Of a stretch of DNA of 51,275 nucleotides, positions 9,819-27,276 are shown in pieces; positions within the stretch are counted from its first letter, which is position 1, and each line of letters begins with the position of its first letter. The notes below the pieces were generated by a model. The model had not been told where the DNA came from, made no database searches, and saw nothing but the letters and a program-made list of their open reading frames with translations. Source of the stretch: a virus (lineage: Duplodnaviria > Heunggongvirae > Uroviricota > Caudoviricetes); the IMG/VR virus record IMGVR_UViG_3300035670_000056, positions 64,001-115,275 of that record; one strand, given 5' to 3'. The position numbers and the translations under genes are program-made.

Positions 9819-10118
9819 TCAATTGGTTATAATTTGTTTTTTTATCAAACCGTCATACCATTTTCTACCAATTTCACTAAATCTATAGTCCCACTTTAAT
9901 ATGTAACGACTTTTTAATTCATTAACCATCGCCGTAGCATATCCTCTTCGACGATGTTCATAACTTATGTTTATATATTCTATACATACAATATCATCAT
10001 AGCAGTTGACCTTGTAATACTTACAAAAGCCAACAGCATTGCCTTGTTTATTTAAAATTTCACAATTGTATTCGTCTCGGTTATTGTTGTAACCCAAATA
10101 CGTGTGAATGAATTTCAT
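9819..10118 (-). CDS. GNAT-family acetyltransferase-like protein
   Basis: IEYINISYEHRRRGYATAMV resembles the acetyl-CoA-binding motif A. Confidence 0.65.
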   Translation of the reverse strand: MKFIHTYLGYNNNRDEYNCEILNKQGNAVGFCKYYKVNCYDDIVCIEYINISYEHRRRGYATAMVNELKSRYILKWDYRFSEIGRKWYDGLIKKQIITN

Positions 10119-14645: not shown

Positions 14646-14679
14646 AAAAACCCCACCAAATTAATGATGGGGTTTTTTT
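14646..14679 (+). terminator. Intrinsic terminator, possibly bidirectional
   Basis: AAAAACCCCA...TGGGGTTTTTTT. Confidence 0.8.
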
Positions 14680-14746: not shown

Positions 14747-14890
14747 ATGGGAAGAAAACAAAAATATATCACAGATGAAGAAAAATTAAACGCACGCCGT
14801 GAAAGACAAATGCGTTATTATTTCAATAATCAACAAGTTAAAAAAGAAAAAGCATTAGAAAGATATTACAAAAAGAAAGGGGAAAAATGA
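14747..14890 (+). CDS. 47-aa basic mini-protein coupled to the GIY-YIG gene (not in ORF track)
   Basis: MGRKQKYITDEEKLNARRERQMRYYFNNQQVKKEKALERYYKKKGEK*; TATTTATT at 14736-14743; ATGA overlap with 14887. Confidence 0.7.
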   Translation: MGRKQKYITDEEKLNARRERQMRYYFNNQQVKKEKALERYYKKKGEK

Positions 14891-15693
14891 AACTCTATTT
14901 GATGATAAAAACACATAATATAACCGGCAAAAAATATTTATGCAAAAAACAAGCTAGAAGTGATGTAGAGGCTGTTAAATACACAGGATCAGGTCTTAAA
15001 TGGAAACCACATTTAAAAGAATTTGGCAAAAATTTTACTACTGAAATTTTGTTTGTTTGTCCAATTGAAAACAAGAAGGAATTTAGAAAAATAGCTATAG
15101 ATTATAGTTATAAACTTAATATTTTAAGTGATTCAAATTGGATGAATATGATATTAGAAGATGGCGGTGGTGGTTCAACATCAGAAACAAATGGTAGTAA
15201 AGGTAAAAAATGGATTTATAAAGATGAACAAAGAAAAAGTGTATGTCAAAGTGTATTGCAAGAGTATCTATCAAATGGTTGGACTCTTGGATTTCCAGAA
15301 AAATTTAAAAAAATCATTTCTGATTATAGCAAAGGAAAAATTCCGTGGAATAAAAATAAAAGTTTAAAACTTCCACATGAATATACATCAAGAATTTATA
15401 AAAAGAAATATAATACAAATAAAAATAAAAAGAATGAATATACTAGTGAACTTAGAAGTTTAATTGCAAAAGAATGTTTAAATAGACCAGAAGTATTATT
15501 GAAATTTAAACAACCAAGAAAATCCCCAATTACAGCAAAAAATGTAACCACGAATGAAATTAAAACTCTTGGTAGAAGACAATGGCATGATGTTCACCAA
15601 ATAGATTATAGGAAACTTTTGAAGGGATATACATCAAAAGGATGGAAGATGGTAGTGGTACCGGGACTTGAACCCGGAACTTCACCCTTATAA
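14887..15693 (+). CDS. GIY-YIG (Seg-like) homing endonuclease
   Basis: LYLMIKTHNITGKKYL...YTGSGLKWKPHLKEFG N-terminus. The C-terminus runs antisense into tRNA-Ile(UAU). Confidence 0.8.
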   Translation: MKLYLMIKTHNITGKKYLCKKQARSDVEAVKYTGSGLKWKPHLKEFGKNFTTEILFVCPIENKKEFRKIAIDYSYKLNILSDSNWMNMILEDGGGGSTSETNGSKGKKWIYKDEQRKSVCQSVLQEYLSNGWTLGFPEKFKKIISDYSKGKIPWNKNKSLKLPHEYTSRIYKKKYNTNKNKKNEYTSELRSLIAKECLNRPEVLLKFKQPRKSPITAKNVTTNEIKTLGRRQWHDVHQIDYRKLLKGYTSKGWKMVVVPGLEPGTSPL

Positions 15694-15726
15694 GGAGTGT
15701 ACTCTAACCACTTGAGTTATACCACT
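15650..15726 (-). tRNA. tRNA-Ile(UAU)
   Basis: AGTGGTA/TACCACT acceptor, CACTC-CTTATAA-GGGTG anticodon arm, TTCAAGT T-loop, encoded CCA. Confidence 0.92.
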
Positions 15727-15735
15727 ATCAAAAAA

Positions 15736-15815
15736 TGGAGCGGTGTCTCGGACTTATTTATTCACCGGCCTTCTCACTGGAATGTGAACGTGCTCCTCAT
15801 AGACACTAACACCGC
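15736..15815 (-). tRNA. Aberrant tRNA-Gly-like gene (UCC in a 6-nt loop, enlarged T-loop)
   Basis: GCGGTGT/ACACCGC acceptor, U73, CCA; TTCAC-ATTCCA-GTGAG arm; no TTC in the T-loop. Confidence 0.6.
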
Positions 15816-15823
15816 ATTAAAAT

Positions 15824-15896
15824 TGGAGCGGGTCCGAACTTTGCATTTCGCCTTTTAGTCTGGTAGACTAACGTGCTCTCTTTACACTTGACCCGC
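15824..15896 (-). tRNA. Non-canonical tRNA-Gly(ACC)
   Basis: GCGGGTC/GACCCGC acceptor, U73, CCA; TTAGT-CTACCAG-ACTAA arm; D-loop lacks GG and T-loop lacks TTC. Confidence 0.7.
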
Positions 15897-15905
15897 ATCT
15901 TAAAT

Positions 15906-16209
15906 CAAAATAGGAAGGACTAATGATTACCTCCAAGTTTCAGAATCACGACTGGTTATTCATCCACAGTCCACACGGTTAATTACTCCTTGTGTTAATG
16001 ACTGATGGGATTTGTTTTTCCCACAACGGGCTACGATTTATCATTTATATTTTAGCTACGATCCCGATACGCTCAAATTCAAGGTTGTACGACCTCAAAT
16101 TCTCCATAGATTTACCCTCCATAACTCTTACTCCAACCAATATACAACGTTTTTCAACGCCATATATTGTGCGTTACAACTAAACTAATCGTTGTTCCGC
16201 CACTATCTT
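15906..16209 (-). ncRNA. ~300-nt structured RNA with tmRNA-like topology and an internal short ORF
   Basis: Terminal AAGATAG/CTATTTT stem with G3.U70; GGAGG/CCTTC T-stem analogue; long-range helix 16192-16183 with 15957-15948; GAAA-capped hairpin. Confidence 0.6.
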
Positions 16210-16212
16210 AAA

Positions 16213-16225
16213 TTGTTAAAGAACT
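16213..16225 (-). promoter_or_regulatory. boxA antitermination site
   Basis: AGTTCTTTAACAA(TTTA) versus rrn boxA GCTCTTTAACAATTTA. Confidence 0.7.
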
Positions 16226-16227
16226 AT

Positions 16228-16355
16228 TGAAAAAGTTGATGGGACTTGAACCCACATACATAACGTCTATTTGTAGTTATATCGTTAATCGGCGGTTTTC
16301 CCCGTGTCTACAACTTTGGGTACCGACCTCCTGCTACGCCATTCGCTACAACCTT
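16228..16355 (-). ncRNA. 128-nt tRNA-like RNA with no standard anticodon arm
   Basis: AAGGTTG/CAACTTT acceptor, GTGGG-TTCAAGT-CCCAT T-arm, D-arm-like GCGAATGGCGTAGC, ends in TCA. Confidence 0.65.
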
Positions 16356-16368
16356 CTCAATTGAAAAA

Positions 16369-16646
16369 TGGTAGGCGTGAGTGGATTCGAACCACCGCTT
16401 TACAGATTTTCGTACCACTATAATTTTCATTACACATTTCTGTTTTGTGGTCTGGACTTTCTCTTCATCATAACATTTCTGTTTTAGATGTTTGCCGTTA
16501 AGTCTCTACACCTTCTCATTTCTGAGCTTGGCTCGGGATTGGCAGTTAAGCTTTCCCCGAATTTGACAAATTCTACTTTAGAGATTTCTCTCTAAGCACT
16601 CAATTTACGCTAAAGTCTGTTGACTCTTCCGCTGGTCTACACGCCC
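16369..16646 (-). tRNA. Intron-split tRNA; predicted anticodon UAA (Leu codon UUA) on a class I body
   Basis: Exons 16613-16646 (34 nt) and 16369-16410 (42 nt) join into a perfect 76-nt cloverleaf with CCA. Confidence 0.85.
16411..16612 (-). mobile_element. Group I intron (IC3-like, 202 nt, no ORF)
   Basis: P1 U.G pair (ACTT/GAGT); P2 TTAGAGA-GAAA-TCTCTAA; AAATTCGGGGAA, CAATCCCGAGCCAA, AAGGTGTAGAGACT and AAAGTCC core elements; terminal G. Confidence 0.92.
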
Positions 16647-16656
16647 ATTTAAATTA

Positions 16657-16669
16657 CTTACAAAGAACT
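16657..16669 (-). promoter_or_regulatory. boxA-like site
   Basis: AGTTCTTTGTAAG just downstream of the promoter at 16688-16715. Confidence 0.55.
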
Positions 16670-16687
16670 ATTACTTACTACTCTTTC

Positions 16688-16715
16688 ATCTTACCACATC
16701 TTACTTACTTGTCAA
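16688..16715 (-). promoter_or_regulatory. Sigma70-type promoter with extended -10
   Basis: TTGACA-16 nt-(TGG)TAAGAT. Confidence 0.75.
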
Positions 16716-16735
16716 ACAAGTTTTTCAGAAAAAAA

Positions 16736-16819
16736 TGGTAGGGATGGAGGGACTTGCACCCCCACGGTTTTACCCACGGCTTTTTGAGAGCCGCATGTCT
16801 TCTGTTCCATCACATCCCC
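16736..16819 (-). tRNA. tRNA-Leu(CAA)
   Basis: CGGCT-CTCAAAA-AGCCG arm, long variable arm, T-loop variant TGCAAGT, CCA. Confidence 0.9.
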
Positions 16820-16829
16820 GTTTTTAAAA

Positions 16830-16923
16830 TGGTGGTTCCGCCCGGATTCGAACCGAGACCGTGCTCAAATCTAGAGCTTATCAACGTTATAAGCGTTGCG
16901 TTCTACCGTTAAACTACGGAACC
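16830..16923 (-). tRNA. tRNA(UAU) with a long variable arm
   Basis: CAACG-CTTATAA-CGTTG arm, then ATAAGCTC-TAGATTT-GAGCACGGT; canonical T-arm; CCA; 94 nt. Confidence 0.85.
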
Positions 16924-16929
16924 ACTAAA

Positions 16930-17008
16930 TGGTAGCGGGGACAGGATTTGAACCTGTGACCTCCTGGTTATGAGCCAAGCGAGCTGATCCGGGCTGCTCC
17001 ACCCCGCA
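16930..17008 (-). tRNA. tRNA-Met(CAU), initiator-like
   Basis: U1:U72 mismatch and GCGGGGTGGAGCAGCCCGG fMet-like body; the anticodon stem has only two of the three consecutive G-C pairs. Confidence 0.85.
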
Positions 17009-17015
17009 AATTGTT

Positions 17016-17028
17016 TTGTTAAAGAACT
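17016..17028 (-). promoter_or_regulatory. boxA antitermination site
   Basis: AGTTCTTTAACAA downstream of the promoter at 17040-17067. Confidence 0.7.
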
Positions 17029-17039
17029 AACTAAAAATT

Positions 17040-17067
17040 ATCTTATCACACATTGATGTTTTGTCAA
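17040..17067 (-). promoter_or_regulatory. Sigma70-type promoter
   Basis: TTGACA-16 nt-(TGA)TAAGAT. Confidence 0.75.
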
Positions 17068-17164
17068 CATCTAAAATCGTCGCCGGTCTTTTAATTGGCG
17101 CTTTAATCCTCTGGTGGGGAACCAACTCAAGTGTCCTATTAATCGGGTATTCTCCGGGCGTAAA

Positions 17165-17236
17165 TGGTTGGAACGGTGGGTGCTGCCCCCACTTAAACTG
17201 GCTTATGAAACCTGTTTCTTTGCTGAAAGCGCTCCA
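17165..17236 (-). tRNA. Atypical tRNA(CAU)
   Basis: TGGAGCG/CGTTCCA acceptor, TTCATAA loop, T-loop GGCAGCA, D-loop without GG, CCA. Confidence 0.65.
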
Positions 17237-17243
17237 ATTAAAA

Positions 17244-17321
17244 TGGTTGCTGAAGCGTAGGAATCGCACCTACTTAATGAGTGGTTATGAGCCACCCCCA
17301 GATCTAACCTGCCGCCAGCTA
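17244..17321 (-). tRNA. Atypical tRNA(CAU)
   Basis: GGTGG-CTCATAA-CCACT arm, T-loop TGCGATT, bulged acceptor stem, CCA. Confidence 0.65.
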
Positions 17322-17326
17322 TTAAA

Positions 17327-17660
17327 TTGTGTTGGTTTCGATAATACACGGAGGTTTATTTCAACGAACTAGCGTTTTTTATTGACTCACAATTATCATT
17401 TTTTTCTCAGGTTTGTACGCTTTTCAGCGTTCCATCAATCTGATACTCTATTTTCCACCAACTAAAATTATCAAAAGAACAAATTAAAAATTGTGTTGGG
17501 TGTGTTTATTGAATACTCTATCCACCCAACAAACAGAGTATACCATACGCTAACCCCGCAACCAAGAAGTTTTTTAAGAGATCTTCCATACTCTAGGGGT
17601 GTTATGGTTTAACGCCCTCCACCAATCAGTTTTATCTTCTGGATAACTGATCAACCAGTA
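17327..17660 (-). ncRNA. Tandem of three related unassigned structured RNA elements
   Basis: Shared TTGG(G)TGGA and TAGAGTAT motifs; two end in CCAACACAATTT; several hairpins; no coding frame. Confidence 0.45.
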
Positions 17661-17661
17661 A

Positions 17662-17736
17662 TGGTAGAGCCACAGAGAATCGAACTCTGATTACTGCCTT
17701 GAAAGGGCGGTGTCCTGGCCGTTAGACGATGACTCC
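17662..17736 (-). tRNA. tRNA-Glu(UUC)
   Basis: Canonical cloverleaf, CTTTCAA loop, CCA. Confidence 0.93.
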
Positions 17737-17743
17737 GTTAAAT

Positions 17744-17819
17744 TGGTGGGACCGGACGGACTTGAACCGTCAACCAATTCGTTAAAAGCGAACTGCTCTG
17801 CCAATTGAGCTACGATCCC
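17744..17819 (-). tRNA. tRNA-Lys(UUU)
   Basis: Canonical cloverleaf, CTTTTAA loop, CCA. Confidence 0.95.
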
Positions 17820-17827
17820 ATTAAAAT

Positions 17828-17840
17828 TTGTTAAAGAACT
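17828..17840 (-). promoter_or_regulatory. boxA antitermination site
   Basis: AGTTCTTTAACAA between the promoter at 17853-17880 and tRNA-Lys. Confidence 0.7.
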
Positions 17841-17852
17841 TATTACAAAATC

Positions 17853-17880
17853 ATCTTACCACACATTCTTAACTTGTCAA
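17853..17880 (-). promoter_or_regulatory. Sigma70-type promoter
   Basis: TTGACA-16 nt-(TGG)TAAGAT. Confidence 0.75.
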
Positions 17881-17884
17881 GTAT

Positions 17885-17992
17885 TTCTTTGTTCTTTGTT
17901 GGTGACCCCCTTCGGTTAAAGGCCGAGGCAGTTCCGCCATACGTAGATGTTCTAGAGGAGTGCTTCTCCCACCGTGCTTAAAGAACAAAGAA
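17885..17992 (-). ncRNA. ~108-nt multi-branched structured RNA closed by a perfect 13-bp stem
   Basis: TTCTTTGTTCTTT/AAAGAACAAAGAA; internal GGTG/CACC, GGAG/CTCC, GGC/GCC and TCGG/CCGA stems. Confidence 0.55.
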
Positions 17993-18013
17993 TCGTTTAC
18001 TTACTACTTCTTT

Positions 18014-18041
18014 ATCTTAACATTCAATTTTCAAAGATCAA
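18014..18041 (-). promoter_or_regulatory. Sigma70-type promoter
   Basis: TTGATC-16 nt-TAAGAT. Confidence 0.55.
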
Positions 18042-18109
18042 GAACTTTCTTTCAAAAGTTTTGAGGTAAAATATAAATATAATCAAATATTAGTAAATTA
18101 CCGAAAAAG

Positions 18110-18185
18110 TGGTGTCCCCGCCAGGAATTGAACCTGGACCAGAGAGGTAGAAGCTCTCTGCTCTATCCATTTAAGCTACGAGGAC
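18110..18185 (-). tRNA. tRNA-Arg(UCU)
   Basis: GAGAG-CTTCTAC-CTCTC arm, canonical T-arm, CCA. Confidence 0.93.
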
Positions 18186-19816: not shown

Positions 19817-20359
19817 TTAGTTGTTATCAATAAAGTTACGATAAAATCCCATCACAATTCCACTGGTAGTACCCACATTAAGTGAACGTACACTACCATA
19901 CGCAGGAATGGTTACAATATAATCAGCATTGTCAAGAATATAATCACTCAACCCACTCTTTTCTTCACCAAAGACAAACATTGGCTTATCTACACCAGTA
20001 AATACCCAGTGGTTAAAAATAGATACAGTCTTGTCACTATACTTGGGAATGTTGTTTTCTACTGCAATTAGTGTATAACCATTGTCATTCACATACGCAA
20101 CAAAGTCTTGTTCTGTCTTGATGTGACTAAGATCGGTGTAATGATGAGTGCCAACAGTACCACGGCGATCCCACTGCTTACTACCACCAACATACATTGC
20201 TTCCTTGAAGCCAAAGAAGTTGGCGTTGCGTACTAGAGTGGATAGATTAAAGTCACCGTTAACGTGCATCATAGCAACACCAGCGTCAATACAGGTGTCC
20301 TTACAATACGACTTGATATCGTCCACACTCTTGTTCTTCAGATGATCCAAAACATTCAT
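19817..20359 (-). CDS. SPOUT-family (TrmH/TrmL-like) RNA 2'-O-methyltransferase
   Basis: NLSTLVRNANFFG, VFGEEKSGLS and IPAYGSVRSLNV SPOUT motifs. Confidence 0.88.
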   Translation of the reverse strand: MNVLDHLKNKSVDDIKSYCKDTCIDAGVAMMHVNGDFNLSTLVRNANFFGFKEAMYVGGSKQWDRRGTVGTHHYTDLSHIKTEQDFVAYVNDNGYTLIAVENNIPKYSDKTVSIFNHWVFTGVDKPMFVFGEEKSGLSDYILDNADYIVTIPAYGSVRSLNVGTTSGIVMGFYRNFIDNN

Positions 20360-26889: not shown

Positions 26890-27276
26890 GTGCCCATTAG
26901 AATTTATTCTAAAGAAGCCAAAGACTTAACTCTATTTGAAGAAAAGAGTTGTGCTAAACTAATTTCCTCTGGTTCCATATACTCGTTATATGTTGAGTGT
27001 TGTTCGCCTGATAAAAAAGTACCAAACAGAGTCTTTATGGCCAAAGAAAATGGCAAGATTATAGGGTGGTCAATAATACGATTAAAGAAAAAGATAGGTG
27101 TTAACGGATACTTTGAGTTTATGGTTTATATCAAACGACTATACAGACGTAGAGGTATAGCAACAAAAATGTATAAACGATCCAGAAAATTCTTTAATTT
27201 GGAAGACGATGATATAAAGGTATACAAAACTGATACTGCTAATATAAGATTCTTTGACTCGGTTATGGAGTCATAG
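26890..27276 (+). CDS. GNAT-family acetyltransferase-like protein
   Basis: FMVYIKRLYRRRGIATKM. Confidence 0.65.
   Translation: MPIRIYSKEAKDLTLFEEKSCAKLISSGSIYSLYVECCSPDKKVPNRVFMAKENGKIIGWSIIRLKKKIGVNGYFEFMVYIKRLYRRRGIATKMYKRSRKFFNLEDDDIKVYKTDTANIRFFDSVMES

Follow-up and report, generated by a model that had tools for sequence, protein, structure and literature searches.

On balance, we think that the two adjacent tRNA-Gly-like genes described here, A and B, encode private, non-decoding Gly-tRNA donors, which would be charged by host GlyRS, escape EF-Tu, and feed a phage GNAT of the Mom type. What can be observed directly is their anatomy, their conservation among related phages, and the co-occurrence of such tRNAs with genes for Mom and DruA-like proteins. 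The genes lie in a stretch of viral DNA of 51,275 nucleotides ("the window"), which corresponds, in reverse orientation, to the first 51 kb of a virus record of 95 kb that is estimated to be 41% complete. The phage-type genes of the window include those for a virion protein, a clamp loader, a fragment of a family B polymerase, and sugar-nucleotide enzymes, and the genomes of relatives reach 296–304 kb. The source is a large freshwater phage, and its clade consists of uncultured freshwater jumbo phages; neither the tRNA region nor the helicase had a close relative among cultured phages. Both genes belong to a tRNA cluster on the minus strand, at 15650–18185 (Table 1).

Table 1. Genes A and B, their parts, and their neighbors (window coordinates)
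Feature	Positions	Strand	Remarks
Gene A	15824–15896	−	Non-canonical tRNA-Gly-like RNA, 73 nt; anticodon ACC; 4-bp T stem plus one extra A on the 5′ side; encoded CCA
Gene A, anticodon	15862–15864	−	ACC in the 7-nt loop CUACCAG (U33, A37)
Gene A, T arm	15835–15850	−	16 nt; G53-C61 pair absent; G55-C56 in the loop; identical layout in 13 of 14 variants
Spacer between A and B	15816–15823	−	8 nt, AU-rich
Gene B	15736–15815	−	Non-canonical tRNA-Gly-like RNA, 80 nt; UCC-derived 6-nt anticodon loop; 4-bp T stem with bulged A; 13-nt T loop; encoded CCA
Gene B, anticodon loop	15778–15783	−	6 nt, AUUCCA
Gene B, T arm	15747–15768	−	Three pairs, bulged A (15748), one pair
Canonical tRNA-Ile(UAU)	15650–15726	−	Downstream neighbor of the pair, context only; ARAGORN/Rfam
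Structured RNA, ~300 nt	15908–16210	−	Upstream neighbor, context only, outside the pair; abundant in lake and river RNA contigs
Sigma70-type promoter match	16688–16715	−	TTGACA-16-TG-TAAGAT; nearest upstream of the pair; consensus match only
Terminator-like hairpin	14646–14677	−	Downstream of the cluster

Both genes are real, and both carry G1-C72, C2-G71, G3-C70, U73, C35/C36, and an encoded CCA, as the original prediction stated. It was also right to call the retained bases the GlyRS identity set, which PMC7826273 gives as G1-C72, C2-G71, U73, and C35/C36, and to assign a 6-nt anticodon loop to one gene (B) and an ACC anticodon without D-loop GG to the other (A). Gene A has a 7-bp acceptor stem and the T loop UGCAAAG; its acceptor-T helix is 11 bp long, without G53-C61 and with A8, and A18/G19 opposite G55/C56 may keep its elbow. 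Its T-stem pairs at 49-65/50-64/51-63 are C-G, G-C, and A-U plus the extra A. In gene B, positions 49-51/63-65 hold C-G, the bulged A, and C-G, and in the energy model U8 can pair with G65, leaving three T pairs. When folded, gene A gives a cloverleaf (z −3.17) and gene B alone folds weakly (z −1.83). Neither was called in ARAGORN and Rfam RF00005 searches, even at E ≤ 10, and with 4-bp T stems and, in B, a 6-nt loop, the pair falls outside the canonical tRNA description (RF00005 gathering threshold, 7/5 acceptor-T helix, 7-nt anticodon loop). The T stems of eight ordinary tRNAs of the cluster have 5 bp, and the 4-bp T stem is a feature peculiar to the pair within the cluster. The loss of the TTC T-loop motif, which had also been pointed out, is genuine but unremarkable in this setting: G55 or G54-G55 also occurs in tRNAs of the same cluster whose T stems have all 5 bp.

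The two genes had been thought to stem from a tandem duplication because they share an AGTGT..AGCAC motif. Ordinary phage tRNA-Gly often carry this motif (canonical tRNA-Gly made up 78 of 114 pattern matches), and A and B are 65% identical, no closer than A is to unrelated phage tRNA-Gly (73 sequences, mean identity 62%, maximum 69%); a recent duplication therefore does not follow from the similarity. A model built on B scores gene A at 54.7 bits, level with unrelated tRNA-Gly.

A and B are two separately conserved gene types of the clade. Pattern scans yielded 14 variants of A at 87 loci and 23 variants of B at 60 loci; the loci are non-independent, and the counts include resampling of the same phages. 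Stem cells are paired in 99.6% of cases over the A variants and 99.5% over the B variants, with two-sided changes at six pairs in A and nine in B (0 of 500 shuffles, a control inflated by sequence kinship); structures slid along the sequences drop to 20–55% paired. The first three acceptor pairs, U73, and the D stem are invariant in the alignments, pairs 4–6 and the anticodon stem co-vary, and the Gly identity bases are almost invariant across all loci. Gene A is 93% column-identical versus ~80% identity in the flanking DNA of many relatives. Selection thus seems to act on the glycine-charging face and the short T stem, not on decoding, and the genes do not appear to be decaying; a conserved non-canonical family rather than random decay is what the original prediction had expected.

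The position of the genes is kept as well: on one side lies the 300-nt RNA or Leu(UAA), on the other an Ile/Met tRNA. Where both flanks are complete, A and B occur together at 43 loci, A only at 25 (one of which holds a B with altered C72), B only at two, and B twice at two. B is missing from about one-third of the complete loci, three B loci are without C36 or C72, and some relatives have B types only. The acceptor, anticodon-arm, and T-loop variants of B are combined in different ways, and the B type of L046 has lost the bulge and retained four T-stem pairs.

Anticodon loops are far more variable. In A, 78 of 87 loci have the loop of the window, seven have 8 nt, one has C33, and one has G33 with UCC; in B, the loop has 8 nt at 36 of the 60 loci, 6 nt at 17, and 7 nt at seven, and reads UCC or ACC. 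The ACC anticodon that drew attention to gene A is indeed the usual one in type A (79 of 87 loci, including the C33 variant), but it is not fixed there, and it is found in type B too, also with G33 and with an 8-nt loop.

The class of odd tRNA-Gly extends past this clade: tRNA-Gly with a T stem of 4 bp and a D loop lacking GG also occur in phages of other groups (L001, L003, L018, L089, L114, and L132). A scan of GTDB with a narrow pattern, for ACC tRNA-Gly of the D-stem class of A, gave eight matches, none of them a tRNA. In a literature search of incomplete coverage, no published description of the family was found.

Several other features of the cluster and its surroundings are worth recording. 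In lake and river runs, the RNA contigs of the ~300-nt RNA are very deep, and in three runs its end is joined to its start. At 16369–16646 (−) lies a tRNA with a UAA anticodon and a short variable loop, interrupted by a group I intron without an ORF (Rfam RF00028, 16430–16622, 74.8 bits); the Leu(UAA) of relatives is intron-free. A tRNA with a UAU anticodon and a long variable arm (16830–16923, −) is kept in relatives. More tRNA-like genes unseen by ARAGORN occur at 17075–17320 (−): two have CAU anticodons and T loops with G55 or G54-G55, and the third is a cloverleaf-like element at ~17075–17160 (−). Two extra minus-strand elements, at 16228–16355 and 17885–18000, are, respectively, a tRNA-like RNA of 128 nt whose T arm is normal and a long hairpin around a UUU anticodon-like loop plus CCA; the hairpin has BLAST matches in clade contigs G072 and G077. 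Upstream of the cluster, 19817–20359 (−) encodes a SpoU-family RNA methyltransferase, with TrmH as the best weak match, and on the opposite strand a lysine-rich ORF of 268 aa (14887–15693, +), without Pfam or PHROG matches, lies between the last tRNA of the cluster and the terminator. There are two small GNAT acetyltransferase genes, at 9819–10118 (−) and 26890–27276 (+). The former is kept in relatives, and in G003 it lies ~350 nt downstream of the Gly pair; as a glycyl transferase it was rejected because it has an acetyl-CoA motif. Finally, CATG is strongly avoided in the window (observed/expected 0.09; CGCG 0.24), and a one-base insertion in the D loop of gene B (15800–15803) destroys a CATG site present at 37 of 60 B loci, possibly a case of restriction-site avoidance.

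Does either gene decode? The complete relative G002, whose A gene is identical to that of the window, has canonical tRNA-Gly(GCC) and tRNA-Gly(UCC) in a second cluster, so the odd Gly genes are extra. (The second cluster of G002 has ~21 tRNAs, and the genome also encodes a tmRNA, at L235 883–1267, whose tag may help to identify the host.) That tRNA-Gly(ACC) is avoided in cells, as the original prediction stated, agrees with PMC6720975, and we find that ACC is best read here as a free position and not as a new decoder. Loops of 6, 7, or 8 nt, C33 or G33, and ACC or UCC within the same gene types are a poor fit to decoding. The absence of mature A and B from RNA contigs is uninformative, since the canonical Ile neighbor was unseen as well; one depth-5 contig of a river RNA run covers the end of the 300-nt RNA, A, and a variant of B, and may be DNA.

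The alternative with most in its favor, which we nevertheless consider improbable, is that gene A decodes GGU with an unusual T arm, as an anticodon-nuclease-resistant substitute for host tRNA-Gly, and that gene B is a drifting accessory copy. GGU is the main glycine codon of the phage (54%, followed by GGA with 27%), the remaining tRNAs of the cluster serve codons that are frequent and A/U-rich (AAA, GAA, AGA, AUA, and UUA/UUG), and the constancy of U33, the 7-nt loop, and ACC in most A loci counts against a donor role. According to PMC6720975, nothing makes an A34-U3 pair inherently unworkable, loop-altered phage tRNAs have been proposed to escape nucleases (PMC10264068), and the possible A18/G19–G55/C56 contact may preserve the elbow. 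However, the 11-bp helix of A lacks G53-C61 and has A8, the A body is also found with 8-nt, C33, and G33 loops, ACC turns up in B, also with G33 and with an 8-nt loop, some relatives manage with B only, and G002 has the canonical tRNAs.

For a donor, one would look for a user of glycine. Phage Mu Mom transfers glycine from Gly-tRNA-Gly onto DNA adenine and accepts all three E. coli anticodons, and it probably reads the acceptor end of the tRNA (PMC13219725). Mom genes occur in the relatives, two in G002 and one in G001 (E 1e-43 to 1e-50), with R111 and S124 of Mu Mom retained, and relatives of these proteins are encoded in 450 viral stretches. In addition, a gene of the DruA/DUF4338 family (394 aa) shares a contig with the pair in seven relatives, at a distance of 62–77 kb (one distance assumes a circular genome). 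The model of this DruA-like protein (pLDDT 93.8) has a GNAT fold for which Mom was the first VIA match (Z 10.1, rmsd 3.5, 165 residues aligned; next 9.3), a match tied with those to other GNATs. Its profile gave no alignment with Mom, Foldseek returned no match to the model at E ≤ 0.001, and PF14236 was its only family match, which leaves it outside the Mom family as defined by PF25680 and catalytic R111/S124. The tRNA array of G003 is interrupted ~460 nt upstream of the pair by two ORFs, one HNH-like, the other small and DruA-like with motifs resembling those of Mom; against the Mom profile the latter matches weakly (E 0.0015, probability 17%), and its single-sequence model (pLDDT 33) was unusable.

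Neither a Mom nor a DruA gene is present in the record of the window itself, 41% complete as it is. For the DruA-like gene this is expected, because the last complete genes of the window map 31–34 kb short of it in G003 and G002, and synteny therefore places it ~30 kb beyond the end of the record. With Mom and DruA genes 57–150 kb from the pair in relatives, there is no operon link, the insertion in G003 excepted. Similarly, no Gly-like RNA was found within 3 kb of 80 Mom and 80 DruA-like loci of the clade, and in the cultured phages HTVC008M, Mosig, S-SM2, S-SSM7, and S-CAM9, which have DruA-like genes, no annotated tRNA adjoins them (nor does the gap in HTVC008M contain one).

The link between such tRNAs and Mom is one of co-occurrence. 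A separate panel comprised 50 other phage records, 25 with odd tRNA-Gly (0.90 Mb) and 25 with canonical tRNA-Gly (3.92 Mb), picked by eye before the enzyme search and including related phages. Strong Mom/DruA matches were present in 6 of the 25 odd records versus 1 of the 25 canonical ones (p = 0.005 per base with three near-identical records merged, kinship being otherwise uncorrected and two weak partial Mom matches in control genomes being left out of the count), and among records of at least 25 kb in 6 of 11 versus 1 of 24. The sole exception on the canonical side is G057, in which the first codons of the Mom gene themselves contain an odd tRNA-Gly, found blind with a model built on type B alone, and L051 also has a tRNA-Gly-like RNA within Mom. 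The bulged A of the type B T stem is at the same position in both of these embedded RNAs. Among outside relatives, the nearest to type B (76%) is a tRNA-Gly type in three records, with Mom 3–5 kb off. In a search for clade members lacking both Mom and DruA, none of 20 independently chosen contigs covered the tRNA cluster.

Together, these observations suggest the following route, each biochemical step of which we infer. A and B would be transcribed with the cluster, presumably from the promoter listed in Table 1, cut out of the cluster transcript, and then glycylated by host GlyRS. E. coli GlyRS charges tRNA-Gly with an 8-nt loop (10.1101/2021.04.26.441066); charging of gene B with its 6-nt loop would be an extension of this. 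The T-stem pairs 49-51/63-65 set the affinity for EF-Tu (PMC7826273), and the defect at 49-65, 50-64, and 51-63 would weaken EF-Tu binding and so keep the Gly-tRNA off the ribosome. A phage GNAT, most likely Mom, would then take the glycine for N6 glycylation of adenine in phage DNA and thereby protect it from restriction; a Mom-like DruA/DUF4338 protein is possibly a second user. ACC would be a tolerated or nuclease-avoiding state at a position read by neither GlyRS nor Mom, and A and B would be partly redundant. The donor reading draws on the retention of the identity bases in nearly all variants while pairs 4–6 and the anticodon stem co-vary. A point against it is that Mu Mom works with host tRNA-Gly alone.

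Somewhat less probable than decoding by gene A is the idea that A and B are decoys for toxins or nucleases of the host that target (Gly-)tRNA-Gly, for example TacT-type acetyltransferases or anticodon nucleases. TacT-type acetyltransferases read the tRNA acceptor end, and here the acceptor end and U73 are fixed while decoding features are loose. The shuffling of acceptor, anticodon, and T-arm modules among relatives fits an arms race, and the genes lie among the odd tRNAs of one cluster, at a great distance from the enzymes. A decoy, however, predicts neither the co-occurrence with Mom/DruA nor the T-stem bulge common to the Mom-embedded RNAs.

The remaining alternatives are all very unlikely. 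Programmed frameshift or hopping tRNAs, with an 8-nt loop as in sufD for +1 and a 6-nt loop for −1, would have a precedent, 8-nt-loop tRNA-Gly being a known +1 suppressor, and 8-nt loops are found at 36 B and seven A loci; but one fixed recoding site cannot be served by a gene that has 6, 7, or 8 nt in close relatives, and the T-stem bulge falls in the EF-Tu site. Decay of duplicated tRNA-Gly genes into pseudogenes, with which the varying loop lengths of B, its frequent absence, and its rare C36 or C72 changes would agree, is largely refuted, because these are conserved gene types with compensatory stem changes, more constant (in A) than their flanks, and their odd T arms are fixed, not random. 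Equally remote is a role as donors for Fem-type peptidoglycan or aminoacyl-lipid transferases in the staphylococcal fashion, which would follow the same logic of retained identity and a weak T stem (PMC7826273): five phage records, one of them complete, gave no match to the FemAB, Acetyltransf_6, and LPG-synthase/aminoacyl-lipid synthase families (PF02388, PF13480, and PF09924), a host enzyme still being conceivable, and the staphylococcal A49-U65/U50-A64/A51-U63 set is absent from the pair. Of the original proposal of Gly donors outside the ribosome, a non-decoding use thus stands as probable and phage-encoded Fem-type chemistry does not; a GNAT of the Mom type is the likelier acceptor of the glycine.

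It is worthwhile to set the pair beside known systems. In the staphylococcal non-proteogenic tRNA-Gly, altered pairs at 49-51/63-65 weaken EF-Tu binding (PMC7826273), and A and B resemble these NP1–NP3 RNAs in keeping GlyRS identity (G1-C72, C2-G71, U73, C35, and C36), losing the D- and T-loop consensus, altering the T-stem pairs that contact EF-Tu, and being extra to normal tRNA-Gly. Unlike them, the pair is phage-encoded, has a 4-bp or bulged T stem where the NP stems have weak but complete pairs, reads ACC or UCC in loops of 6–8 nt, and comes with no Fem gene in the phage. A tRNA-Gly-like "pseudo-tRNA" inside a mom homologue was described in 2011 from the ssrA islands of Dehalococcoides, with no function given (PMC3146451); like it (compared by description only) and the RNAs of L051 and G057, A and B are unannotated tRNA-Gly-like RNAs, and in G001 and G002 the same element encodes Mom. 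Type B shares with the L051 and G057 RNAs the Gly acceptor and a bulged A three pairs from the T loop, type A having its extra A on the 5′ side instead. Unlike Mom-embedded RNAs, the pair consists of free-standing genes of a tRNA operon, two types side by side, neither inside nor next to mom but at least 57 kb away in G001 and G002. The pair would thus work like the staphylococcal and the Mom-embedded tRNA-Gly while, by the features that define them (T-stem pairs; position in mom), it belongs to neither.

Similarly, the Mom proteins of the relatives resemble that of Mu (PMC13219725; PF25680; PDB 8bv8) in R111/S124, and a donor would need a Gly acceptor end with any anticodon; Mu has no private tRNA, and the accessible portion of that report gives no dedicated donor for Mu Mom. 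The 8/4 and 9/3 allo-tRNAs and selC* tRNA-Cys, which are found in phages and some of which are charged yet untranslated (PMC5389517), share the 4-bp T stem and, in selC*, a bulged A. In these RNAs the acceptor branch is kept at 12 bp by lengthening of the acceptor stem, and in allo-tRNAs the variable arm is long; unlike these, the pair has Gly identity and a short variable loop, and A is 7/4 rather than 8/4 (8-bp acceptor plus 4-bp T stem).

What does this mean for those who annotate phage genomes? Standard tRNA finders overlook tRNAs of this class, and an apparent tRNA-Gly(ACC) need not decode. If the donor reading is right, part of the long-standing puzzle of phage tRNA genes would have a non-translational answer, some of them being cosubstrate carriers for chemistry that protects the genome, and the pair would allow a direct test of how Mom-type enzymes avoid competition from EF-Tu and would offer natural tRNA-Gly bodies that tolerate loops of 6–8 nt. 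A broader version, which we offer as doubtful though conceivable, is that free-standing, EF-Tu-excluded tRNA-Gly in the tRNA operons of jumbo phages are a private pool of activated glycine for DNA-hypermodifying GNATs, including DruA/DUF4338, with the 4-bp or bulged T stem as a general mark of a donor. The donor reading would also hint at what the DruA/DUF4338 family does; if the broader version is true, this family would be a second class of Gly-tRNA-dependent modifiers of nucleic acids.
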